Shown: one piece after another, positions 1-37,264 of the stretch
Layout: each line of letters opens with the position of its first letter
Position numbering within the stretch: the stretch's first letter is position 1
Source: a virus
Lineage: Duplodnaviria > Heunggongvirae > Uroviricota > Caudoviricetes
DNA: 37,264 bases
Direction: 5' to 3' (one strand)
Virus record (IMG/VR): IMGVR_UViG_2778261068_000007
Location: 1-37,264 of that record
Notes under the pieces: generated by a model
Database searches by the model: none
What the model was told of the DNA's origin: nothing
What the model saw: only the letters and a program-made list of their open reading frames with translations
Program-made: the position numbers and the translations under genes

Positions 1-62
1 AGTATCCGTTCAGCTGCAAAGTCATTATGTTGATTTTACGGTGACTATCCAGGAGTGAAAAG

Positions 63-192: not shown

Positions 193-747
193 TCAGCCAA
201 CAAATTTAGCAACAAATACAGCAACCGCCGCCGTGAAAATGGTTGTGCATACTGGCACAATAATGCCACTCCAACGCCACTTCGTATTATCATCAACCTT
301 GTCAAACCGCCGATTCATCTCATCCATAATCTTGTCAAAGCGTTTATCCATCGCTTCGGTAAGCTCACCCTTCAGGCTGTTAATGTCTGATTTGAGCTGC
401 TCTTTCAGGTGAGCTGTATCAGATTTAAGCTCACCTTTCAGATTCGCAATATCGCATTTAAGATCACCTTTCAGATGAGCAATGTCTGCTTTGAGCTCAC
501 CTTTCACCTCACCAACATCAGCTTTGGTTGAGAGGTTTGTAGTGCGTTCAGTAAGCGTCGCAAGGTCGTTTCTTGTTAGCGATAAATCACCTTCGAGTCG
601 CTCAATTCGCCTTTCAAGTTTATCTGACATTCCGCCTCCACTACTGCCGCCATCGCCGCCATGATAAAGCACATCACGCTCAGAATGCGACATACTACCT
701 GCTGAATTACCGAAAAGGTTTCTTGCTGCATTACCCATTTTCACCAT
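193..747 (-). CDS. Coiled-coil protein with tandem 11-residue repeats and a C-terminal transmembrane anchor (possibly XhlA-like)
   Basis: 184-aa ORF: Gly-rich N-terminus, four 11-aa repeats (DIAHLKGDLKC / DIANLKGELKS / DTAHLKEQLKS / DINSLKGELTE), hydrophobic tail WRWSGIIVPVCTTIFTAAVAVFVAKFV. Start uncertain (ATGs at 747, 738, 693). XhlA resemblance is from memory only. Confidence 0.5.
   Translation of the reverse strand: MVKMGNAARNLFGNSAGSMSHSERDVLYHGGDGGSSGGGMSDKLERRIERLEGDLSLTRNDLATLTERTTNLSTKADVGEVKGELKADIAHLKGDLKCDIANLKGELKSDTAHLKEQLKSDINSLKGELTEAMDKRFDKIMDEMNRRFDKVDDNTKWRWSGIIVPVCTTIFTAAVAVFVAKFVG
355..519. repeat. Five 33-bp tandem direct repeats inside the 193..747 gene
   Basis: Units at 355-387, 388-420, 421-453, 454-486, 487-519 share the core aagctcacctttcag; they encode the 11-aa protein repeats on the - strand. 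Confidence 0.7.
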
Positions 748-1231
748 CCTGCGCTTTGTCTTTCTCCAACCACTTCAGCACCGCAGACGTACGGTAAAGG
801 CTCAGGTAACCACAATTCAGGCAATGCAGCGTGTAATAAGTTTTGCGCATATCAGGTATGCTCTTAACATCACCAAAAAAAGTATAAGATACATAATGCT
901 TTATGTTCTCTTTAATTAACTCACTCTGCTCCTCCAAGGGTAGATTGTTAAAATTTTCTGGTTTCTTATTTTTATCCCAACAAAGATCCATACTTTCAGG
1001 AACAGATAATCGCGACGATCCACATGAAGGGCAGACACTGGAGACCCCCTTCTCAGACAAGAAACGGAAGAAGATTTCTGGCGTAATCTCCATCAGCCGC
1101 TCTTTATGTTTTTTGACACGACTCATCGACTTCTTATTGATTTCATCAGCTTCTTCTTTGCATTTATCTTCTATATATTTTGATAGTAAATAGTCATATA
1201 ACTCTTTTTTTGTAGGTTTTTTTATTTCCAT
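731..1231 (-). CDS. Cys-rich putative zinc-ribbon protein, AT-rich cargo gene
   Basis: 166-aa ORF with CPSC ... CLNC pairs; markedly AT-rich versus the flanking phage genes; its start codon lies 2 nt after the int stop and it overlaps the next gene by 17 nt, implying co-transcription with int. Confidence 0.5.
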   Translation of the reverse strand: MEIKKPTKKELYDYLLSKYIEDKCKEEADEINKKSMSRVKKHKERLMEITPEIFFRFLSEKGVSSVCPSCGSSRLSVPESMDLCWDKNKKPENFNNLPLEEQSELIKENIKHYVSYTFFGDVKSIPDMRKTYYTLHCLNCGYLSLYRTSAVLKWLEKDKAQDGENG

Positions 1232-1233
1232 AG

Positions 1234-2211
1234 TTACATTCCTCCCAAGGGATTAAACCTCACCGCATCCTGCAAGTAATCCGGCGCAAGATGGGCATAA
1301 ATCATCGTTGTCTGAATCTTTGCGTGCCCCAGAATTTTCTGGAGCGTCAGAATATTGCCGCCGTTCATCATGAAATGACTGGCGAAGGTGTGGCGCAGCG
1401 CATGAACAGCCTGGCCGTCAGGAACATCAGGTGCGACCGTTTTGATGACATCGCGAACCAATGGATAATCCAGCGTCGGAAACACCAGTTTCCCGCCCCG
1501 TTTTTTGATCTTTTCAAACAAACCTTCGGAGATTGGGACAGTACGGTTTTTACTATTCTTTGTTTTTGAAAAAGTGATTCGACAATGCAGAACGCGACGC
1601 TGCTCCAACGCCACTACCTCGCCCCATCGCGCCCCGGTCGACAAAAGGATTTCGACAGCCAGCCGTTCATCGGGATTTTCAGCTAGTGCATCCAGCAACT
1701 GAATACACTCAGACTTACTCAGATATCCCATTTCGCGCTCGTTAACCTTCATTCCTTTCAGGCCTTGAACGGGATTATCGTTAAGAAAATGGCCGGATGA
1801 GATGAGCGCAGTAAACATCGCGCTTAACGCCCCAATCTCTCGATTAATGGTGCTGGGCTGTATCCCCTGCTCTATCCTGGACACACGTAGCTCGGTGAGC
1901 ATCGTTGTATTAAGTTTATGCACGCACGGGTCATCCATTGCCTCACTCAAGCGCAGCAATTTAAGGCGCGTGTTATGCCCTGACTTCATTAGCTGGCCGT
2001 GGTATTTCCACCACAAGTCAATAAGCACTGACAGCGGACGGCGATCAATGGAGTTTCCTTTCCACTCATTGTTATGCTGTTGCGCCAGCACCCACCGCTC
2101 ATATAAAACTGCATCCGATTTCGTTTTAAATTTTTTACGAATGCGTTTGCCTTTACGCCCCTCCGGGCGCATGTCAAGAAGATACCCTCCCGGAATTGAT
2201 TTTATGCTCAT
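1234..2211 (-). CDS. int: Tyrosine integrase, P2 Int-like
   Basis: C-terminal catalytic region HALRHTFASHFMMNGGNILTLQKILGHAKIQTTMIYAHL; N-terminus MSIKSIPGG..RPEGRKGKRIRKKF matches remembered P2 Int (MAIKKLDDG..RPTGRNGKRIRRKF). Start placed at the internal ATG (2209-2211), not the longer ORF start at 2361. Confidence 0.9.
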   Translation of the reverse strand: MSIKSIPGGYLLDMRPEGRKGKRIRKKFKTKSDAVLYERWVLAQQHNNEWKGNSIDRRPLSVLIDLWWKYHGQLMKSGHNTRLKLLRLSEAMDDPCVHKLNTTMLTELRVSRIEQGIQPSTINREIGALSAMFTALISSGHFLNDNPVQGLKGMKVNEREMGYLSKSECIQLLDALAENPDERLAVEILLSTGARWGEVVALEQRRVLHCRITFSKTKNSKNRTVPISEGLFEKIKKRGGKLVFPTLDYPLVRDVIKTVAPDVPDGQAVHALRHTFASHFMMNGGNILTLQKILGHAKIQTTMIYAHLAPDYLQDAVRFNPLGGM

Positions 2212-2260
2212 TCGTGAAACCCCAGCGTTACAAGACCACCATGCCCCCAGCGTTCCATGA

Positions 2261-2569
2261 TTAGCCGGGCTGTGTGCCAGTCTTGCGGGGTTTTTGAGAA
2301 GGCGATGTGCTTTTTGGCCCATCAGGGGAGAGAGAGGGACTGATCTGCCCAGCAGCCTCATTCGTTTTTCCTGTCATAAGCCAATTCATGTACTTAAAAA
2401 AGCGAGGGTGATTAACAATCTTGATAAGCACTTCCCCCCCTATGTTTTCAATCCGCCCCGTTTCATAACGGCGCAAAGTGCCGATAGGCACATCAATCAG
2501 GCCGCAAAATTCTTCGCGCGTTAAATCCTCTGATTCACGAATCACTCTAATTTTTTCACCGATAAGCAT
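2261..2569 (-). CDS. Immunity repressor, P2 C-like HTH protein
   Basis: About 100 aa with HTH-like LTREEFCGLIDVPIGTLRRYETGR; sits between int and a divergent Cox-like gene as in P2; start placed at ATG 2567-2569 (the track ORF begins at an upstream GTG). Confidence 0.7.
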   Translation of the reverse strand: MLIGEKIRVIRESEDLTREEFCGLIDVPIGTLRRYETGRIENIGGEVLIKIVNHPRFFKYMNWLMTGKTNEAAGQISPSLSPDGPKSTSPSQKPRKTGTQPG

Positions 2570-4994: not shown

Positions 4995-7817
4995 GTGGCA
5001 ACGGAGTACATCAGAGACTGGCAACAACCACGCCATGCAGTCGGTCGCGAGGGAACGGGGGAGCCTGTCCGCCCCTCCCTTCTTTCTTCCTGGCTGGATG
5101 CCTACCGGGCAGAGAACGAGCGCCGCCAGGAAATGGCTGATGCGGCGTTCTCCGCTGCACCACTGGGCAATCTGATTAATAAAAGCCTGGACGCACAGGA
5201 AAAACAGGACAAAGCCATCACACTGGCAAGAGAAGCCAGAAAGCAGGCACGCGGTGCGGTGGATGAAGCCATGGCCTCGCTGCGTCTGCTGCCGTCCTAT
5301 CTGCGTGATCCGCTTATCCGCCATCTCTCTTTCCTGCGCAAAAAACAGGAATCTGGCCGCCAGAAAGGCAAAAATAGCTGGCAGGCTGAACGCTACGCGC
5401 GCGGAAACCTGCGCAAAATATTCGAACGTCTGGACTGCACCGACCGTCGCTGGCTGACTCCGGGTTATCGCTCCCTTGCCGGACGTGAACGTCTGGACGA
5501 TTTGCTGTACTTGCCACAGCTCAACAAGCACCAGATACAGACGCTGGCCGTCATGACAGCGGCAATGTTCAGCAGCACCTTCGAAAAACTCTGCGATGAC
5601 TTTGGCGCGACCGACGGCGAGCTGACCATGGATATAACGCTGAAGGCGTATCAGATGCTGGCCCGCATGGCGTTACATCTGCACACGGTGCCGCCGCATT
5701 ATGACGCACTGACAACAGACAAAGACCGGAAGAACGAACCGGACACGGAACTGCTGCCGGGTGCAATCCTCCGCCTGACCTGTGCGGACTGGTGGAAACG
5801 CAAATTGTGGCTTTTACGTTGCGAATGGAGAGAGGAACAACTCCGCGCTGCCTGTCTGGTTTCCAGAAAAACATCGCCCTATCTGAGTCAGGACGCATTA
5901 AGTGAATTTCGCGCACAGCGCGAGAAAACACGCGATTTCCTGAAAAGTTTCATGCTGGAAAATGAAGACGGGTTCACGATTGATCTCGAGACGGTGTATT
6001 ACGCGGGAGTAAGTAACCCGGTCCACCGTAAGGCAGAAATGATGGCCACCATGAAAGGGCTGGAACTTCTGGCCGAAGCCCGTGGCGACAAAGCGGTGTT
6101 TCTGACTGTCACCTGCCCGTCAAAATACCACGCAACAACGGAGAACGGTCATCCGAACCCCAAATGGAACGGGGCCACCATGCGCGACTCCAGCGATTAC
6201 CTGGTTAACACGTTTTTTGCGGCGGTCCGCAAAAAACTGAACCGCGACGGTCTGCGCTGGTATGGCATCCGCACGGTGGAGCCTCACCATGACGGCACCG
6301 TGCACTGGCATATGATGGTCTTTGCACACCCGGACGAGATTGAAACCATCGTGTCCCACGTCTGCGATATTGCCATTCAGGAAGACCGCCACGAGCTGGG
6401 CGATGACATAACTCCGCGTTTTAAGGCGGAGTACGTAGACGGCTCAAAAGGCACGCCAACCAGCTACATCGCCACCTACATCGGAAAGAACCTGGACAGC
6501 CGCGCCGTGGATGGCATCGACCCGAAAACGGGCAAGCCACGCGTTGACCACGAAACCGGAAAATCAATGGCAGAGAGCGTGGAACGCGCCATCGGCTGGG
6601 CGCGCCTTCACCGGGTCCGCCAGTTCCAGTTCTTTGGTATCCCTTCCCGTCAGGTGTGGCGTGAACTGCGTCGCCTTGCCAGCCAGATGGCACGCAACCC
6701 GGAAGGCCCGCAACGGCTGAAGGATGACGCAATGGACGCGGTTCTTGCTGCCGCTGATGCCGGATGTTTTGCCACCTACATAGAGAAACAGGGTGGCGTA
6801 CTTGTTCCACGCAAGGATTACCTGATTCGCACCGCCTACGACCTCGCAGAAGAGCTGAACGATTACGGCGAGCAAAGCGTACAGATTTACGGGATCTGGT
6901 CGCCACAAATCGGGGAATCTTCCCGCGTGTGCACGCACCCGGATAACTGGAAGCTGGTAAGACGTAAACCGGAAGCGGAAGACAGCGCCCGCGAAAATGG
7001 TTTTGACCTTCAGGGCGGCCCTGCCGCCCCTTGGACTCGTGGCAATAACTGTCCCCGTGTACAGGAAACGGACAACAACGGGACAGAACAGCCGGAAGAA
7101 CGGCCAGCACCGTGGCCGCAGCTTCCTGACGGCGTTGAAGTGAATGAATGGATGCGCTCACTGAAACGGCACGAACGCCGGGCGCTGATGCGTTCGCTGC
7201 GTGACAAACAGGCAAAAAACAGCAGTGATGAAATGCAGAGCTGGACACAGAGCCGCAAACAGCAGCGGCCTTTGCCTGATAACCACGAATTACTCGCTAA
7301 AGAATGGCGGGAGTCTGCCGAATCTCTCGGCCTGCATATCGGTGAACAACAGATGCTGCACCTGTTACGGGGCGGCAGTCTGTACGTTGACGGCAGCATC
7401 ATTGCGCCGCAGGGATATGAAATTGTACGTAAACCGGATACCCGACCGGACAGCCGAATCACGCGACTTTGGCAGCGCCTGAGTCGTAATCACAGCGTAA
7501 ACAGCACGGAAATCCGCCATAACCCGGTTTCCAGCTATCTGAAACAGCTCGGGGCATCAGACCCCGAAGCCGCCGCACGCCTGGCATCCACAATTCAGCA
7601 GGACCAGAACACCATGAAAACTCCCGTTACCGTGCTTTCTGACATGCTGCGCGCCATCCGTGACGCAGAGCACGCACAAAGATTCAATGAAACCACTGAA
7701 CGCGTCCGCCGCAAAGCAGATCTGTTGCAGGGTGGACTAACCAGTGAAAACAAAAAACAGACAAAAACGGGATTCACAAATCCCGTAAATGAGCAAAAAA
7801 CGCGCCGCGATATATGA
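4995..7817 (+). CDS. A: Rolling-circle replication initiator, P2 gpA-like
   Basis: 940-aa ORF with HWHMMVFAHPDE (HUH-type motif) and YHATTENGHPNPKWNG...TFFAAVRKKL...GLRWYGIRTVEPHHDGTVHWH; GTG start at 4995 with RBS ggag 8 nt upstream (alternative ATG at 5133); longer than remembered P2 A (about 760 aa). Confidence 0.9.
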   Translation: MATEYIRDWQQPRHAVGREGTGEPVRPSLLSSWLDAYRAENERRQEMADAAFSAAPLGNLINKSLDAQEKQDKAITLAREARKQARGAVDEAMASLRLLPSYLRDPLIRHLSFLRKKQESGRQKGKNSWQAERYARGNLRKIFERLDCTDRRWLTPGYRSLAGRERLDDLLYLPQLNKHQIQTLAVMTAAMFSSTFEKLCDDFGATDGELTMDITLKAYQMLARMALHLHTVPPHYDALTTDKDRKNEPDTELLPGAILRLTCADWWKRKLWLLRCEWREEQLRAACLVSRKTSPYLSQDALSEFRAQREKTRDFLKSFMLENEDGFTIDLETVYYAGVSNPVHRKAEMMATMKGLELLAEARGDKAVFLTVTCPSKYHATTENGHPNPKWNGATMRDSSDYLVNTFFAAVRKKLNRDGLRWYGIRTVEPHHDGTVHWHMMVFAHPDEIETIVSHVCDIAIQEDRHELGDDITPRFKAEYVDGSKGTPTSYIATYIGKNLDSRAVDGIDPKTGKPRVDHETGKSMAESVERAIGWARLHRVRQFQFFGIPSRQVWRELRRLASQMARNPEGPQRLKDDAMDAVLAAADAGCFATYIEKQGGVLVPRKDYLIRTAYDLAEELNDYGEQSVQIYGIWSPQIGESSRVCTHPDNWKLVRRKPEAEDSARENGFDLQGGPAAPWTRGNNCPRVQETDNNGTEQPEERPAPWPQLPDGVEVNEWMRSLKRHERRALMRSLRDKQAKNSSDEMQSWTQSRKQQRPLPDNHELLAKEWRESAESLGLHIGEQQMLHLLRGGSLYVDGSIIAPQGYEIVRKPDTRPDSRITRLWQRLSRNHSVNSTEIRHNPVSSYLKQLGASDPEAAARLASTIQQDQNTMKTPVTVLSDMLRAIRDAEHAQRFNETTERVRRKADLLQGGLTSENKKQTKTGFTNPVNEQKTRRDI

Positions 7818-7893: not shown

Positions 7894-8853
7894 ATGAAAA
7901 TTTGCATCGACGACGGCTCCACCAACATCAAGCTGGCATGGACTGAGAACGGCGAACGCCGCAACGCCATCAGCCCGAACAGCTTCAAGTCGGAATGGTC
8001 TGCGCCGTTCGGTGGCACACAGCCCGCGAACTACATGCTTGATGGCGTGCGCTATGGTTTTGATCCGGTCAGCGATCGCTTTGTCCAGACGACCGACACG
8101 CAATACCAGTACAGCGATGTGAATGTCATTGCCATTCATCACGCGCTGGTCAAATCAGGTATCACACCACAGGAAGTGGACGTGGTTGTCACTCTGCCAC
8201 TGAGCGAGTATTTCGATACAAACGCACAGCCGGACATGGCCAACATCAACCGCAAAAAAGCGAATGTCCTGCGCCCTGTGGAGTACCAGAACGGTGAAGC
8301 ATTCACTATCCGCAACGTGCGGGTTATGCCTGAATCCATTCCGGCTGGCTTTAAGGCACTGGCTGACATGAGTCCGTTTGAATCCCTGCTGATTGTGGAT
8401 TTAGGCGGAACAACGCTGGATGTGGCAAAGGTTCAGGGGCAACTGGCAGGCATCAGCCAGGTGTTTTGCGATCCACACGTAGGCGTTTCCCTGATGGCTG
8501 ATGCCGTGCTGTCGGTGATGGCCACTAACGGTATGCGTACCAGTCACCACATCGCCAATACCATTATTGAGCACCGTCACGATGAAGCCTGGCTACGCCA
8601 GCACATTCACAATGACGCGCATTACAACAGCCTGATGGCGGTTATTCGTGAAAAGGAGGAGACACTAAAACAACGCGTGATCCGCGCACTCGCGGGCTTT
8701 TCGGGTTACGGGCGGGTGCTGGTTGTCGGTGGAGGAGCGGAGATTGTGGCACCCGCAGTCCGTGAAATCTATGGAGTCAATGCGAATTTCATCACAGACG
8801 GGGTGCCACAGTTTGCTCTGGTTAACGGTCTGTACGCTATGGATAAGGAGTAA
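7894..8853 (+). CDS. parM: Actin-like segregation ATPase, ParM/StbA family
   Basis: N-terminus MKICIDDGSTNIKLAW closely matches remembered R1 ParM (MLVFIDDGSTNIKLQW); further shared blocks ISPNSFK.EW, YSDVNV.A.HHAL, LPL.E, VDLGGTT; RBS aaggaaaa upstream. Confidence 0.8.
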   Translation: MKICIDDGSTNIKLAWTENGERRNAISPNSFKSEWSAPFGGTQPANYMLDGVRYGFDPVSDRFVQTTDTQYQYSDVNVIAIHHALVKSGITPQEVDVVVTLPLSEYFDTNAQPDMANINRKKANVLRPVEYQNGEAFTIRNVRVMPESIPAGFKALADMSPFESLLIVDLGGTTLDVAKVQGQLAGISQVFCDPHVGVSLMADAVLSVMATNGMRTSHHIANTIIEHRHDEAWLRQHIHNDAHYNSLMAVIREKEETLKQRVIRALAGFSGYGRVLVVGGGAEIVAPAVREIYGVNANFITDGVPQFALVNGLYAMDKE

Positions 8854-8859
8854 CCCTCC

Positions 8860-9171
8860 ATGGCGACATTAACCAGAAGAATAAGTTTCTATCTGAAGCC
8901 AGCCGCCGTCAAGAACGAAGGCAAAGCATGCGCCTGGCTGGACAGCCTTACACCAGAAGCCCGCAAAAGCGGCCAACGCGTGGCTTTTCTGGCCGGGCTG
9001 GCACTTCTGAAAATGAATCCGGCAGAGGCTTACCGACTGGCTGCATGGGCTGATGATGAGGCGTTATCAGTGACACAAACCAGGGCAGAACGCCACATGT
9101 TACAGCCAGCGCCCACCGCACAGATAACCAGTCAGATAGCTGGAAATATCCGGGCGTTATTTCCCGAATAA
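8860..9171 (+). CDS. parR: ParR/StbB-like centromere-binding adaptor
   Basis: 103 aa immediately downstream of parM with RBS aaggag; RRISFYLKP...AWLDSLTPEARKSGQRVAFLAGLALL...IRALFPE parallels remembered ParR (RTIAFKLNP...DTLDSIPQGERSRLNRAALTAGLALY...LRSLFPKE). Confidence 0.65.
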   Translation: MATLTRRISFYLKPAAVKNEGKACAWLDSLTPEARKSGQRVAFLAGLALLKMNPAEAYRLAAWADDEALSVTQTRAERHMLQPAPTAQITSQIAGNIRALFPE

Positions 9172-9234: not shown

Positions 9235-9576
9235 ATGCAACACATTGACAGAGAAAAAGCGCAGCGACTGATTGAGCGGATGGAAGCGCTGGCGAAAGAA
9301 GAAAATGTCAACATCCAAAAAATAGCAGAATGTGGCCAGATAGTTCTTCGTCGTGAAAAAGACATCAAGCAACTGATGTCTGGCGAAACCAGCAAAACAC
9401 GGATTCCAGGCGAGAAAACGATTTATTGTAGCTTCTGCAATAAATCCCAGTACGAAGTCACAAAGGTGATTGCCGGACCGTCTGTTTACATCTGCAATGA
9501 GTGCGTGGATTTGTGCAATGAAATTATCAGGAGAGAAGCGACTGACCATGAAGAAGCGCGGAGATGCAACGATTAA
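9235..9576 (+). CDS. ClpX N-terminal zinc-binding-domain (ZBD)-only protein
   Basis: C-terminal half [40 protein letters not shown] is near-identical in pattern to the remembered ClpX N-domain ([40 protein letters not shown]), including the C4 zinc ligands; no AAA+ module follows. Confidence 0.7.
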
Positions 9577-33773: not shown

Positions 33774-35276
33774 ATGAACAAAAAGCTGTATTTATTCCCA
33801 GACTCAAACATTTTTCTACAATGCAAGGCCTTGACGCAGGTAAATTTTTCCGAGATTACTGCTTGTGATGAAGTATGTATCATTATTACAAGGCCCATTC
33901 AGCAAGAGATTGACCGCCAGAAAGGGCAAGGTAATTCCCGCCTATCCAAAAAAGCAAGGAAGGCTGCTAGCCTATTTAATCAAGTAGTTGATTCAACTGA
34001 CATGACTCTTGTTATTCGTGAACGCTCGCCGCGAGTTTTTCTTACCATGGATCTAAGCCTGAAACCATGTGAACAGTTATCTGAACAATTGGATTATCAG
34101 GAGGCCGACGATCGTTTTGTTGGTATTGCGGCAGGGTATTGCGCTGACGATCCAGATTCGGAGGTGGCAATCATTACCAATGATAGCGGTCCACGTTTTT
34201 CAGCAATAAAACATAATATAATCTGCTATAAAGTGCCTTCTTCATGGTTGCTTCCTGCTGAGCCAGATGAAAAGGATAAACAAATTAAATTGCTGGAAGC
34301 TAAGCTGAAGCAATTCACTCAGTCTATGCCCGATTTCAGCATTAAAGCAGCCGATGACGAGCAATTAAATATTGTACTTCCTTATTATACAGCTTTATCT
34401 GAATATGAAGTTGATAATTTGCTTTGTCAACTAACGGATGCATTCCCATTGGTTACAAACTTTGACAATGAACAAACTACCCCACAATCACTAGAAAAAA
34501 TCATCAAGTCATTTAGTCAACAGGAGTATTTCCCTGTATCAGCAGATGATATTTCTCTTTATAAAGAAAAACATTATCCACTTTGGAAAAAGCAGTGTGA
34601 AGAAATACTGAAAAACTGTCATACTCATATTAATCCGAAGGCAATAAAATACCCGCTGTCGTTTTTATTACAAAACACAGGTTATACTATCGCTGAACGT
34701 GCTGTGGTAACATTTACAGCAAAAGGAGATTTTCGTCTGTGTGGATTTAATTGGGAGATAATGGAAGAGCTGACTGAAAGCAAAAGGATTGACCTACCTT
34801 CAGCCCCTACCGCACCCAAAGGAAAATGGCGTAGTGTATGTGGCGTAACAGAAAGAATGCCTTACGCTTGGGGAGCTTTGGAAACACCGCTATCCAGTAT
34901 AATTTCAAAAGAAATTGGTCCTTTGTTATCTCTTACTCCAACAGAAAGGGATAAAAACGATTTTTATTATAAAGAAAAGAGAAATGTGCCAGTTCAAGTT
35001 GTATCGCTGGAATGCGAAGAGTGGCGTCATCAAGTCAAAGAAGAAATATTCCCGTTGTTCGTATATACAGCCAACAAACCAAAGAAAGTGAATGGTGCAA
35101 TTGAGGTGAGAGTTGATGCAAATAACCTTACCAATCCGGTCATTAAAACATTTAAATTAAAAATAACTATAGAAGAACATAGTGCATTTTCAACCATAAC
35201 AGAAATGGTGCAGACATACATTCAAGAGCAGAAGAAAAGACAGAAAAGTTCTATTAGCGCACAAATCAAAACATGA
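33774..35276 (+). CDS. PIN-domain protein with a roughly 350-aa uncharacterised C-terminal region
   Basis: N-terminal 150 aa carries the PIN acidic residues in order (LFPDSNIF, QQEID, EADDRF, IITNDSG); gene and flanks are AT-rich unlike the phage backbone; inserted between D and ogr. Confidence 0.6.
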   Translation: MNKKLYLFPDSNIFLQCKALTQVNFSEITACDEVCIIITRPIQQEIDRQKGQGNSRLSKKARKAASLFNQVVDSTDMTLVIRERSPRVFLTMDLSLKPCEQLSEQLDYQEADDRFVGIAAGYCADDPDSEVAIITNDSGPRFSAIKHNIICYKVPSSWLLPAEPDEKDKQIKLLEAKLKQFTQSMPDFSIKAADDEQLNIVLPYYTALSEYEVDNLLCQLTDAFPLVTNFDNEQTTPQSLEKIIKSFSQQEYFPVSADDISLYKEKHYPLWKKQCEEILKNCHTHINPKAIKYPLSFLLQNTGYTIAERAVVTFTAKGDFRLCGFNWEIMEELTESKRIDLPSAPTAPKGKWRSVCGVTERMPYAWGALETPLSSIISKEIGPLLSLTPTERDKNDFYYKEKRNVPVQVVSLECEEWRHQVKEEIFPLFVYTANKPKKVNGAIEVRVDANNLTNPVIKTFKLKITIEEHSAFSTITEMVQTYIQEQKKRQKSSISAQIKT

Positions 35277-35519
35277 GGGTGTACTCAAATAATACAATGC
35301 TATAGTAAATCTATAAGTGCATAACTATTTCCTGATCTTTTCCCAAAATAGATGACAGGATAAAAAACATTCCAATCATTTACAGGCTTTGGATAAATCT
35401 TATCAAAGCCTATTTCTTCAAGAGTTAAATCACCGCTTTTCGCTCGAAACGGACTGGCTGTTGGAGTATGAGCCAGAACAACTTAGAATAGCCCCTGCAC
35501 TACGTTAAGGGAGGTCGCT

Positions 35520-35780
35520 ATGTTCCGTTGTCCGCTTTGCCGCGCATCTGCCCGTATCCGCACCAGTCGTCCTGAAAATGATTCAAACACCGTGCGGCAA
35601 AAGTATTACCAGTGTAACAATCTAGAATGCGGCGTATGCTTCTCAACACTGGAAGCTTTCCATAAATTCACATCGAAACACGCCTCCGGCGTTCACTCTT
35701 CAGAAGGTATCCCGTGGCATGAGCTGCCAGCTTCACACAGGGGAAACAATCAGATGAGTTTGCCTTTGCCTCAAAATTAA
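35520..35780 (+). CDS. ogr: Late transcription activator, Ogr-like zinc finger
   Basis: MFRCPLCRASARIRTSRP...YYQCNNLECGVCFSTLEAF parallels remembered Ogr (MFHCPLCQHAAHARTSRY...YHQCQNVNCSATFITYESV); RBS aagggagg. Confidence 0.85.
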   Translation: MFRCPLCRASARIRTSRPENDSNTVRQKYYQCNNLECGVCFSTLEAFHKFTSKHASGVHSSEGIPWHELPASHRGNNQMSLPLPQN

Positions 35781-35840
35781 CAGGCAGAATTGCCGGAGTA
35801 ACAAAAAAGCGATAGATTACGCGCGGGTGCCTTTCGGCTA

Positions 35841-36053
35841 ATGGCTGGAGGGAATACCCAAAGGCCGGATGTGGAAAGGCCCCGGAAAACATCTCTGTTT
35901 AACCGAGGCCCTGACCATCTAACCTTAGCAAGTGATAGGTTAGCGCCTCCACAAAAAAGGAGCAAGCGCTATGTCGCAAAAATCGCTGATAGCCATCACG
36001 TTCTGCGTGACGGTAATCCTCATCATCTGGATGCTGCACGGTTCGCTGTGTGA
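35841..36053 (+). CDS. mok-like overlapping reading frame of the hok-type locus
   Basis: 70-aa ORF in another frame overlapping the start and most of the hok-like ORF, the same arrangement and size as mok. Confidence 0.35.
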   Translation: MAGGNTQRPDVERPRKTSLFNRGPDHLTLASDRLAPPQKRSKRYVAKIADSHHVLRDGNPHHLDAARFAV

Positions 36054-36111
36054 AATACGGATGAGCTTCTGGGGAGCGGAGTTTGCGGCGTTCTTACAGT
36101 GTAAGCAGTAA
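35971..36111 (+). CDS. hok: Hok/Gef-family type I toxin (46 aa)
   Basis: MSQKSLIAITFCVTVILIIWMLHGSLCEIRMSFWGAEFAAFLQCKQ: N-terminal TM helix then SLCEIR and AAF, as in remembered Hok (..[25 protein letters not shown]..); RBS aaggag 8 nt upstream; absent from the ORF track because under 60 aa. Confidence 0.7.
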   Translation: MSQKSLIAITFCVTVILIIWMLHGSLCEIRMSFWGAEFAAFLQCKQ

Positions 36112-36196
36112 GGAAACCGCGACGGGGGAGCAATCCCCCGTCAATCGGTTGCTAAGGCTGGCCGAAGTGGCACCCTATCCCATGGACACAAACAAG

Positions 36197-36232
36197 AAAA
36201 CCCGCAGCGTAAATACTGCGGGTTTTCTTTTT
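36197..36232 (+). terminator. Rho-independent terminator of the hok-like transcript
   Basis: aaaacccgcag-cgtaaata-ctgcgggtttt followed by CTTTTT. Confidence 0.6.
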
Positions 36233-36273
36233 GGTACCCTCACAAATGAGGGCACCATCCGTAAGCAATAGGC

Positions 36274-36293
36274 ATAACAAATCAATTTGTTAT
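36274..36293. promoter_or_regulatory. Perfect 20-bp palindrome upstream of the com-like gene (candidate operator)
   Basis: ataacaaat-ca-atttgttat, 37 bp upstream of the Com-like start. Confidence 0.4.
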
Positions 36294-36330
36294 CATATCG
36301 GCAGCAGTAACCACATAAGAGGTGCCGCAG

Positions 36331-36528
36331 ATGATGCAAAATATACGATGCAAAAATTGCTATAAATTACTTGCCCGCGCCTCATTTCACCACATTGAAA
36401 TAAAATGTCCGCGTTGCAAAACCCTTAACCAGGTAACGAGAGCCATCGAGCCCCCCACACACATGAGGAGCTATGACCGTGGGGATCGCAATCCAGCACA
36501 AAACAGCCCATACCCCGGAATACACTAA
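36331..36528 (+). CDS. com: Mu Com-like zinc-finger protein (candidate translational activator)
   Basis: MMQNIRCKNCYKLLARASFHHIEIKCPRCKTLNQV parallels remembered Mu Com (MKSIRCKNCNKLLFKADSFDHIEIRCPRCKRHIIM); RBS aagagg 8 nt upstream; 3' end overlaps the methyltransferase start by 56 nt. Confidence 0.7.
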   Translation: MMQNIRCKNCYKLLARASFHHIEIKCPRCKTLNQVTRAIEPPTHMRSYDRGDRNPAQNSPYPGIH

Positions 36529-37264
36529 GATTTACCAGACTGACAATGCCACGCTCTGCTGTGGGAATGCACTGGAAATATTGCCGCTGATTGAGCCAGA
36601 AAGCATTGATGCCTTAATCACTGATCCGCCTTACAGCTCAGGGGCAACACACAAGGCCGGACGCACCAACCAGGGCAGCCACGCAAAATATCTGAACGGC
36701 GAGAGCCTTCACCGCTTTGATGGATTTGCGGGTGAAAATATGGATGCCCGTTCGTGGGCTTACTGGACACAATTATGGATGGCACAGGCATACCGCGCAG
36801 TCAGGCCGGGCGGTTATGCCCTGGTGTTTACTGACTGGCGGCAACTGCCTGCTTTAACCGATGCGTTTCAGGCCAGCGGCTTTACATGGCGTGGAATCAT
36901 TGCGTGGAACAAAGGGAGGGGGTCACGAACACCCCATACCGGGTATTTCCGGCATCAGTGCGAATACATCGTCTGGGGCAGTAAAGGCCATTTAGGTAAA
37001 TCGCCTTCGGGACCGTTCGACGGCTGCATGACGTTCCCGGTTATCCCGTCAAAGAAACTGCATCCGACCGGAAAACCAGAAGAGTTAATGGCGGAGCTGG
37101 TCAGGACTGCGAATAGAGGCGGAACAGTCCTTGATCCTTTTATGGGGTCAGGGACAACGGGTATTGCAGCACTGAAAGCAGGACGCAAATTTATTGGTAT
37201 AGAAACCAGTGATCATTATTTTGATGTAGCAACACAACGGCTCAAAACGGCGATCGAACCATAA
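36473..37264 (+). CDS. DNA methyltransferase, N6-adenine or N4-cytosine, beta-class
   Basis: Catalytic motif ITDPPYSS precedes the AdoMet-binding motif DPFMGSGTT (beta-class order); start overlaps the end of the Com-like gene; alternative GTG start at 36479. Confidence 0.85.
   Translation: MTVGIAIQHKTAHTPEYTKIYQTDNATLCCGNALEILPLIEPESIDALITDPPYSSGATHKAGRTNQGSHAKYLNGESLHRFDGFAGENMDARSWAYWTQLWMAQAYRAVRPGGYALVFTDWRQLPALTDAFQASGFTWRGIIAWNKGRGSRTPHTGYFRHQCEYIVWGSKGHLGKSPSGPFDGCMTFPVIPSKKLHPTGKPEELMAELVRTANRGGTVLDPFMGSGTTGIAALKAGRKFIGIETSDHYFDVATQRLKTAIEP

Follow-up and report, generated by a model that had tools for sequence, protein, structure and literature searches.

The final two genes of a P2-like prophage, com and a DNA methylase gene at its right end, are probably best explained as a Mu-type com switch that drives a different cargo. 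The window (the whole stretch of DNA analysed, 37,264 nucleotides) carries an integrase, a GPA replication protein, Ogr/Delta and P2-type tail genes, which identify it as P2-like (Peduoviridae), and the module lies inside this P2-type genome, with ogr on one side and the attachment site on the other. The pairing of com with the methylase is real and far beyond chance, being found in about 147 complete E. coli genomes, in phage Chuche and in 21 IMG/VR contigs. A sequence-only reading of this DNA had suggested that Com-type control is grafted onto a methylase; the idea is correct though already known, the arrangement of Com with a DNA-modification gene being not new: Com with non-Mom methylases has been in the literature since 2011/2012, and the pair with a beta-class enzyme is already annotated. 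The elements of the module are as follows.

36194–36229, + strand: stem-loop and T-run terminator at the end of the upstream hok/sok unit, bounding the com-methylase unit on its 5′ side.
36317–36322, + strand: com Shine-Dalgarno sequence AAGAGG, 8 nt upstream of the ATG.
36331–36528, + strand: com, 65 aa from the first ATG, a CCCC zinc ribbon with a disordered-type C-terminal tail.
36440–36453, + strand: Com-type RNA hairpin GAGC[CAUCGA]GCCC, with CC-N3-GAG, a closing C-G pair and one A·C stem mismatch at 36441/36452.
36453–36484, + strand: putative hairpin inhibiting translation, with CCCCAC/GUGGGG as outer and CAUG/UAUG as inner stem, a loop containing AGGAGC and a predicted −11.5 kcal/mol.
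36465–36470, + strand: methylase Shine-Dalgarno sequence GAGGAG, 2 nt before the AUG and 8 nt before the GUG.
36473–37264, + strand: orphan amino-methyltransferase (N6/N4) of the beta class; counted from the AUG it has 263 aa, or 261 aa if GUG 36479 is the start.

Both Shine-Dalgarno sequences were read directly from the sequence. The terminator has a 15-pair stem and was called on the minus strand by the scan; the + strand carries this stem as well, with a T run after it, and the region forms an inverted repeat (I1) with arms at 36188–36207 and 36216–36235. A search of 35500–37264 against Rfam in E-value mode returned only sok and terminator-like noise, with neither the Com hairpin nor the inhibitory one covered by any family.

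By profile and alignment, the small protein is a true homologue of Com, as its zinc-finger pattern had first suggested. It matches Pfam PF10122 (Zn_ribbon_Com) with an E-value of 3.5e-12 and 46 bits (cutoff 22.9) and PHROG 13819, ‘gpCom control of modification’, with an E-value of 9e-16, and in a tblastn comparison residues 2–43 are 60% identical to Mu Com. The cysteines of the zinc ribbon are C7, C10, C26 and C29; all four, together with R6 and R28, are invariant in an alignment of eight diverse Com proteins that includes Mu Com and six distant members. Searching PDB sequences with Com produced nothing but ribosomal S27 zinc ribbons at chance level (E > 0.3), and in NCBIfam a Com model is absent and the methylase models reach sub-threshold scores only.

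The cargo is a beta-class amino-methyltransferase and not Mom, and on this point the family profile, the motif order and the predicted fold all agree with the sequence-only reading. The protein matches PF01555 with an E-value of 2e-33, and its DPPY motif (36623–36634, residues 51–54) precedes FMGSGTT (37139–37159, residues 223–229), placing motif IV N-terminal to motif I in a SAM-dependent Rossmann fold, as is characteristic of the beta class. The top Foldseek matches of its AlphaFold model (pTM 0.78) are CcrM, M1.HpyAVI, M.BceJIV, M.RsrI and M.PvuII, with E-values from 1e-16 to 1e-11, and the correspondence of the predicted fold with the first four of these indicates a beta-class enzyme. Specificity does not transfer from these structures, because sequence identity to them is only 20–26% and loops 55–90 and 152–160 of the model are of low confidence. 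The DPPY form of motif IV favours N6-adenine as the methylated base; an N4C enzyme is also among the top structural matches. The PADLOC matches were to generic models for Type II and orphan methylases, from which no specificity follows. In the literature, we found no characterised P2-like Com-linked methylase or recognition site beyond the table entries for phage KS5.

The designation of the enzyme as an orphan is also borne out by its neighbours, among which there is no cognate restriction endonuclease gene either upstream in the window or downstream in relatives. The 3′ end of the window is the methylase stop codon, and the genes upstream are hok and com. In E. coli CEA212U the host gene flk lies directly downstream of the methylase, and in the virion-derived genome of phage Chuche the module is located between hok and int, the methylase being followed by attP/int.

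The RNA elements of the Mu system are present at the junction of the two genes. The target of Mu Com is a hexaloop hairpin, 5′-CC(N)2-3GAG-3′ with a closing C-G pair, that adjoins an inhibitory hairpin containing the GUG of mom (PMC6483171). In the window, the equivalent hairpin lies inside the com coding region and begins 22 nt downstream of the second CxxC, an offset identical to that of AUGC[CUGCGA]GCAU in Mu com-mom; the loop motif and the closing pair are present and three of the four stem pairs form. It is weak, at 0.0 kcal/mol unstable alone, and minimum-free-energy prediction favours another local fold, CGA[GAGCCA]UCG, over it.

The inhibitory hairpin that adjoins it has stem arms matching those of Mu and of the Com locus L141, CCCCAC…GUGGGG in the window corresponding to CCCAC…GUGGG in Mu, and GUG 36479 sits in its 3′ arm in the same place as the mom GUG. 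Its predicted energy is −11.5 kcal/mol, compared with −7.9 kcal/mol in Mu. According to structure prediction it sequesters the methylase start: in ensemble folding the unpaired probability is 0.04 for AUG 36473 and 0.01 for GUG 36479 (96–99% paired), with the Shine-Dalgarno sequence mostly unpaired (0.82) in the hairpin loop. Thermodynamics alone has been left out as evidence, because the folding energy of the 51–76-nt region does not differ significantly from that of shuffled sequences (z −0.8 to −1.4). The inhibitory stem is invariant among close relatives and thus offers conservation and no covariation. Taken at their predicted structures, these RNA elements suggest that a Mu-like mechanism is better supported than the sequence-only reading could tell.

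Covariation is seen in the Com hairpin when the family is considered as a whole. All 71 of the 71 non-redundant Com loci have a Com-type hairpin at +19 to +22 nt and/or +41 to +44 nt, against a background of 0.09 per 110 nt. When motifs are chosen regardless of pairing, 57% form all three outer pairs, compared with 6.5% in the background. The stem covaries, with all three variable pairs changing on both sides, and the covariation score is 0.426, compared with 0.16 ± 0.025 for shuffles, none of 500 of which reaches it, and with no more than 0.19 for slid controls. The hairpin also lies in different reading frames across loci, where it encodes A-I-E, A-C-E or A-L-S, and the constraint therefore acts on the RNA.

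Among 80 IMG/VR Com loci, 77 have an overlapping DNA-modification gene downstream of com, the other three being cut off or unclassified. These cargoes comprise 10 Mom proteins, 38 proteins with the late-DPPY motif order (four of the 38 were sampled, and all are PF02086 D12-class) and 29 PF01555 beta-class methylases. Three unrelated cargo families are thus found at Com loci, with the binding hairpin at a fixed offset within com, often as a tandem pair. From the side of the enzyme, Com is upstream in only 8 of 79 species-level loci of the window's methylase family; this rules out Com as an obligatory partner of that family and indicates that the enzyme is not intrinsically dependent on Com.

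The methylase start codon has two in-frame candidates, AUG 36473 and, 6 nt downstream, GUG 36479. As had been pointed out, com overlaps the next gene as Mu com overlaps mom; the overlap is 56 nt from the AUG or 50 nt from the GUG, the latter being equal to the 50-nt overlap of Mu com with the mom GUG. The sequence-only reading placed the ribosome-binding site 2–4 nt from the ATG and took this as consistent with a need for an activator. GAGGAG does lie 2 nt before the AUG, but the argument for an activator is weakened because the in-frame GUG gives a canonical 8-nt spacing. RNA structure is a likelier block on the methylase start than spacing, if the predicted folds are correct, and on the combined evidence GUG 36479 is most likely the start codon.

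The mechanism that we propose follows that of Mu. com and the methylase gene would be transcribed on one mRNA, probably from a promoter just 3′ of the hok/sok terminator. In the free mRNA, the hairpin at 36453–36484 would pair both candidate start codons, and little methylase would be made. Com, translated from the same mRNA, would then bind the adjoining hairpin at 36440–36453, whose CC-N3-GAG loop matches the recognition motif of Mu Com and whose 3′ arm has C36453 in common with the inhibitory stem. Its binding would destabilise the inhibitory hairpin and allow ribosomes to initiate, most likely at GUG 36479. We infer that the methylase would modify replicating phage DNA, probably at N6-adenine, such that progeny may evade restriction in the next host. 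So tight a translational gate would imply that unscheduled expression of the methylase is harmful to the host.

Activation could also occur in cis, with ribosomes translating com melting the 36453–36484 hairpin so that methylase synthesis follows com translation, and with the Com protein dispensable or otherwise employed. This is compatible with the Com switch, the two not being exclusive, and we give it a small chance as the explanation of the module. The com reading frame covers the entire inhibitory hairpin and ends 50 nt within the methylase gene, and the Shine-Dalgarno sequence is exposed in the loop, the start codons alone being paired. The same 50-nt in-frame overlap, however, permits no stop-start re-initiation; with the com stop that far inside the methylase gene, stop-start coupling is inapplicable and the description of the two genes as ‘translationally coupled’ does not hold. 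Ribosome traffic also leaves unexplained the zinc ribbon and the covarying hairpin, with its invariant C…GA loop and fixed offsets in 71/71 loci. Mu Com, moreover, was reportedly found by Wulczyn, Bolker and Kahmann in 1989 to act in trans as a protein.

Distinct differences from Mu, and from close relatives, are seen upstream of com, where two further features are located.

36269–36296, + strand: sigma-70-like promoter candidate, TAGGCA, 16-nt spacer, TG-TATCAT; a consensus match only, with 9/12 positions matching.
36274–36293, no strand assigned: 9+2+9 inverted repeat ATAACAAAT-CA-ATTTGTTAT, at the junction of a lineage-specific 31-bp deletion.

The inverted repeat had been described as a 20-bp perfect palindrome. 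Its 9-nt arms are indeed perfect, but the 2-nt centre is not self-complementary and there is no perfect 20-mer. Nor does its proposed role as a candidate operator stand: the repeat occurs only in the window and in two near-identical IMG/VR contigs, and in 0 of 5426 complete E. coli genomes. At the same site the relatives (173 E. coli genomes, Salmonella and phage Chuche) have 31 more bp, with three GATC, and the palindrome is the junction left by their deletion; its absence from relatives rules it out as a conserved operator. The 40-bp three-GATC region of the relatives is 32/40 identical to the corresponding stretch of Mu, which we take to be the Dam/OxyR site of Pmom. All three GATC have been lost in the window lineage through the 31-bp deletion and two G-to-A changes. 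By inspection, there is no GATC between 36233 and 36330, and thus none of the three that belong to Mu mom-type control, and no Mu C-protein site is seen in the window.

The deletion has also altered the candidate promoter. Its −10 element is common to the relatives, in which the arrangement is TCGATA-16-TATCAT with the ancestral −35, TCGATA, inside the second GATC site; the −35 of the window, TAGGCA, was introduced by the deletion. Expression timing may therefore differ from that in the relatives, the upstream control region being deleted in this lineage. The P2 Ogr-type late-promoter box is TGT-N12-ACA; none was found by eye in 36200–36330, and late timing via Ogr is thus unsupported.

These losses raise the question of whether the module is misregulated or decaying in the window lineage, either silent or leaky in the lysogen, in which case the host chromosome would be marked and the enzyme would no longer serve the lytic cycle alone. 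The disappearance of all three GATC and of the ancestral −35 is in keeping with this, as are the truncated methylase genes in 2 of 21 close relatives (L086 and L089). We nevertheless regard misregulation or decay as improbable, and somewhat more so than activation in cis, since both open reading frames, both Shine-Dalgarno sequences, the TG-bearing −10 and both hairpins are intact and the deletion itself supplies a new −35-like TAGGCA at 16-nt spacing. Two contigs, L083 and L084, have the same deletion yet differ elsewhere, from which we conclude that the deleted form has persisted. It is highly improbable that Com is a DNA-binding transcription factor with 36274–36293 as the operator of the operon, as could be read from the overlap of the palindrome with the candidate −35/−10 region and from the PGAP product name ‘Com family DNA-binding transcriptional regulator’, a name that is probably misleading for the Com family, because the palindrome is a product of the 31-bp deletion that is absent in the 173 E. 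coli genomes with the module's upstream region, in Salmonella and in Chuche, the conserved partner element is an RNA hairpin within com, and the characterised Com family member binds RNA (PMC6483171).

Comparison with known systems shows where the window departs from Mu. Relative to Mu, the window has an extra AUG 6 nt before the GUG, a mismatch in the Com hairpin stem and no three-GATC cluster; its phage is P2-like where Mu is transposable, and its cargo is a SAM-dependent beta-class methyltransferase where that of Mu is Mom, homology to Mu ending directly after GUGGGG. The whole Mu cassette of GATC cluster, com, Com hairpin, inhibitory stem and GUG has been reused, with the cargo swapped exactly after GUGGGG, and Com appears as a translational switch that is compact, portable and of interest to synthetic biology. 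As a discovery this adds little, Com-controlled operons being textbook knowledge for Mu and already extended to methyltransferases (PMC3299994).

Com homologues are located directly upstream of Hin1523, Hia5 and Nme1821, non-Mom DNA adenine methyltransferases that occupy the mom position as in the window, in FluMu, Pnm1 and an island carried by H. influenzae biogroup aegyptius (Drozdz et al. 2012, PMC3299994). Com-type regulation was already proposed there and invoked to explain silent expression. The ORF47/48 pair of phage B3, with a non-Mom methylase downstream of Com, is grouped with these systems. They differ from the window in residing in Mu-like prophages and in having FxGxG before DPPY (Dam/DpnII-like, alpha order), the order also seen in the 38 late-DPPY cargoes from IMG/VR, whereas the PF01555 enzyme of the window has DPPY first.

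Closer likenesses are found in phages of the window's own type, KS5, Smp131, RsoM1USA and Chuche, in which com, with Com-type hairpins, overlaps the methylase gene. The PF01555 methylases of these Peduoviridae relatives are 42–47% identical to that of the window, again with DPPY before FxGxG. Com and a beta-class methylase are annotated in Burkholderia KS5 (gp21/gp20; PMC3091744), Stenotrophomonas Smp131, Chuche and about 147 E. coli genomes; Ralstonia RsoM1USA has the pair with com unannotated. In Escherichia phage Chuche the module recurs with 92.6% DNA identity, its com annotated ‘gpCom control of modification’. The position of the module differs: KS5 carries it in the interval from the tail-fibre-assembly to the sheath genes, Smp131 has it following Q, and in the window it occupies the ogr/att end. 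The mode of sequestration differs as well: the Com hairpin of KS5 has its 3′ arm paired with the methylase Shine-Dalgarno sequence, whereas in the window it is the start codon that is paired, within a Mu-type stem.

Hin1523, Hia5 and Nme1821 are almost non-specific m6A enzymes (PMC3299994). By analogy there is some chance, well short of likely, that the window's methylase similarly has very relaxed or no specificity and is toxic, hence Com-gated, and that after loss of the three GATC it may be expressed leakily in the lysogen and reshape the methylome of the host. It would then be a beta-class counterpart of those Com-associated non-specific enzymes, independent of M.EcoGII, and Com-linked methylases in general are candidate broad-specificity enzymes of the kind used for chromatin-accessibility mapping. 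M.EcoGII, like other prophage orphan methylases, resembles the window's enzyme in being beta-class, prophage-borne and an orphan; it is silent in the lysogen, reported to be toxic when expressed and, at 349 aa with no Com gene mentioned for it (PMC5778455), distinct from the 263-aa protein described here.

The pairing of com with the methylase is real, and the arrangement of a com gene with a beta-class methylase is of a kind already known and annotated. Its parts in the window are as follows.

36331-36528: com, 65 aa, with AAGAGG 8 nt upstream and cysteines at positions 7, 10, 26 and 29
36440-36453: Com hairpin, GAGC[CAUCGA]GCCC
36453-36458 and 36479-36484: predicted inhibitory hairpin, CCCCAC with GUGGGG, inner stem CAUG/UAUG, AGGAGC in the loop
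36473-37264: methylase ORF, 263 aa, PF01555 (E 2e-33)

The com product matches Pfam Zn_ribbon_Com at 46 bits (cutoff 22.9; E 3.5e-12) and the PHROG 'gpCom control of modification', and its zinc ribbon shares 60% identity with Mu Com. In the methylase, DPPY lies ahead of FMGSGTT, as in the beta order, and the solved structures closest to its AlphaFold model (pTM 0.78) are CcrM, M1.HpyAVI, M.BceJIV, M.MboIIA, M.PvuII and M.RsrI, at identities of 20-26%; motif order and predicted fold together point to the beta class. The sequence-only reading had described a Com-like zinc finger overlapping a beta-class amino-methyltransferase at this position, and both are present.

The target of Mu Com is a hexaloop hairpin with 5'-CC(N)2-3GAG-3' and a closing C-G pair, adjoining a translation-inhibition hairpin whose stem contains the mom GUG start (PMC6483171). 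The Mu elements read AUGC[CUGCGA]GCAU, then CCCAC-GGAGAAACAUU-GUGGG. As in Mu, the Com hairpin of the window starts 22 nt past the second CxxC, and the com/cargo overlap, counted from a GUG at 36479 that is in the methylase reading frame, is exactly 50 nt in both. Sequence similarity between the window and Mu ends directly past GUGGG(G), so the start codon is the exact point of the cargo swap. Ensemble folding has this GUG 99% paired and the AUG 96% paired, and the isolated inhibitory hairpin has a predicted energy of -11.5 kcal/mol, compared with -7.9 for Mu. The Com hairpin of the window has an A.C mismatch in its stem and is predicted to be unstable by itself; an alternative local fold exists for this region, and C36453 is common to both hairpins, so that they should compete slightly. 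Folding energies of the window RNA region are not significantly better than those of shuffles, and the inhibitory stem, being identical among close relatives, gives no covariation.

The spacing between ribosome-binding site and start had been taken as consistent with methylase translation that needs an activator. The GAGGAG does end 2 nt before the AUG (36473), but the GUG stands 8 nt after it (the corresponding Mu spacing is 7 nt), and the argument loses its force. We do not favour the short AUG spacing as a cause of poor methylase translation; it may instead be a sign that the annotated start lies 6 nt too early.

Com loci for comparison were drawn from one-per-species genomes, found via the methylase, and from IMG/VR, found via Com. 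A hairpin of the form xxxC[C-N2-4-GA]Gxxx is present in 71/71 non-redundant loci, at +19..22 and/or +41..44 nt past the second CxxC, against a background rate of 0.09 hits per 110 nt. When motifs were picked blind to pairing, by CC-N2-4-GAG and position only, all three outer pairs were formed in 57% of 105 distinct Com-locus motifs, compared with 6.5% of 3531 from background. The 48 hexaloop cases show two-sided changes at all three variable stem pairs (38 cells), with a covariation score of 0.426 that was reached by none of 500 shuffles (0.160 +/- 0.025); slid controls gave at most 0.19. Since the hairpin codes for different residues, in different frames, from locus to locus, the constraint on it acts at the level of RNA. 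The structures downstream vary in detail, yet every one of them conceals either the Shine-Dalgarno sequence or the start codon; in the Burkholderia P2-like phage KS5 and in comparison locus L105 the sequestering stem is built in part from the Com hairpin's own 3' arm. This comparative RNA evidence gives good support to the proposal first made for this DNA, in which an orphan beta-class methylase is under translational control of the Com type.

Beyond the Mu and E. coli-P2 groups, the majority of com genes contain a tandem pair of Com-type hairpins, spaced about 22 nt from each other within com and at fixed offsets of +19..22 and +41..44 nt past the second CxxC (loci L104-L162, L030, L031, L034 and L081; for example L030 2920-2933 and 2942-2955). 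These tandem hairpins are covered by no Rfam family and are in line with a bipartite SELEX motif that has been reported for Mu Com.

Com with a non-Mom adenine methylase after it has been described in FluMu, Pnm1, an island carried by H. influenzae biogroup aegyptius and phage B3; Hin1523, Hia5 and Nme1821 are nearly non-specific m6A enzymes for which Com-type regulation was proposed (PMC3299994). In KS5, annotated in 2010, a 'Com translational regulator' (gp21) overlaps an 'N-4/N-6 DNA methylase' (gp20) (PMC3091744). The methylases of KS5, Smp131 and RsoM1USA are 42-47% identical to the window enzyme, with the same motif order, and their loci likewise have Com hairpins. The PGAP product names of the two E. 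coli genes are 'Com family DNA-binding transcriptional regulator' (com at L001 6861-7058, a comparison locus) and 'DNA-methyltransferase'. The former label probably misstates the function; the family member that has been characterised is a translational activator that binds RNA, and the partner element conserved here is an RNA hairpin. Com lies upstream in only 8/79 species-level loci of the window's methylase family.

Cargo of 80 IMG/VR Com loci, by overlapping gene
Mom: 10/80
Methylase with late-DPPY motif order: 38/80 (four sampled, all four PF02086 D12-class)
PF01555 beta-class: 29/80, 21 at >=92% identity to the window enzyme and 8 at about 44% (one of the 8, L120, also checked against Pfam)
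Cut off or unclear: 3/80

Upstream of com, what had been described as a perfect 20-bp palindrome and candidate operator is an inverted repeat (36274-36293) of 9-nt arms around a non-palindromic CA. In 15 of 18 distinct upstream variants, among them Salmonella, phage Chuche and E. coli, 31 extra bp lie in its middle, the undeleted form reading ATAACA-GATCGATGCAATAAATCCGATCGATAAAAACGATCGAT-TTGTTAT, with three GATC sites. The junction is seen only in the window and IMG/VR contigs L083 and L084, and in 0/5426 complete E. coli genomes, 173 of which hold the three-GATC form. A conserved operator is thus ruled out, and the palindrome is the scar of a 31-bp deletion, with two further G-to-A changes; neither it nor the ribosome-binding-site spacing upholds the case for control. 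When window 36258-36300, L090 1900-1966 (a relative) and Mu L003 1092-1131 were compared, the three-GATC stretch aligned at 32/40 positions with Mu GATCGAATCAATTAAATCGATCGGTAATACAGATCGATT, also upstream of com (local score 36, compared with 16.2 +/- 2.0; reached by 0/300 shuffles). This Mu stretch we take, following Bolker and Kahmann (1989) and Hattman and Sun (1997), to be the Dam-methylation/OxyR control region of Pmom. Transcription from Pmom is governed by Dam and OxyR (PMC3378877). A candidate promoter of the relatives, TCGATA-16-TG-TATCAT, overlaps their GATC sites; the window lineage, which has lost the presumed Dam/OxyR input, has kept the -10 and gained a -35-like TAGGCA.

The 37.3-kb window is a P2-like prophage of Peduoviridae type, with these landmarks.

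1234-2361, minus strand: integrase
4995-7817: GPA replication protein, followed by P2-type structural genes
35520-35780: Ogr/Delta zinc-finger activator
35825-36111: Hok/Gef toxin with sok-like RNA

The window stops at the methylase stop codon, leaving attR outside and com and the methylase as its final two genes. In E. coli CEA212U the host gene flk lies 230 bp past the module, and in the virion-derived Escherichia phage Chuche the module sits between hok and integrase; the module is therefore cargo of the phage, placed at its ogr/att end, and the methylase has no restriction partner.

Directly upstream of com is a hok/sok-type toxin-antitoxin locus with its terminator (35825-36235, plus strand; Hok/Gef Pfam E 2e-7; sok Rfam 38.8 bits, under the gathering score); after the terminator comes an inverted repeat with 11-bp arms (36232-36257), part of which has been deleted in several relatives. 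A 500-aa protein with an N-terminal PIN_4 domain (33774-35276, plus strand; E 6e-8), which has no PHROG or PADLOC match, may be a moron or defence gene; it lies in a low-GC island (35-40% vs about 53%) inserted between gpD and ogr and missing from CEA212U. A ParM/StbA actin-like segregation ATPase (E 7e-82) and an StbB-type plasmid-stability protein (7894-9171, plus strand), adjoined by a ClpX-type C4 zinc-finger protein (9235-9576), suggest a plasmid-like maintenance option for the prophage. Downstream of the integrase, 193-1231 (minus strand) encodes a coiled-coil protein, labelled DUF1640 in its E. coli O157:H7 match, and a PHROG 4293 protein (function not assigned), and is 97.6% identical to P2-like prophages of E. 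coli O157:H7.
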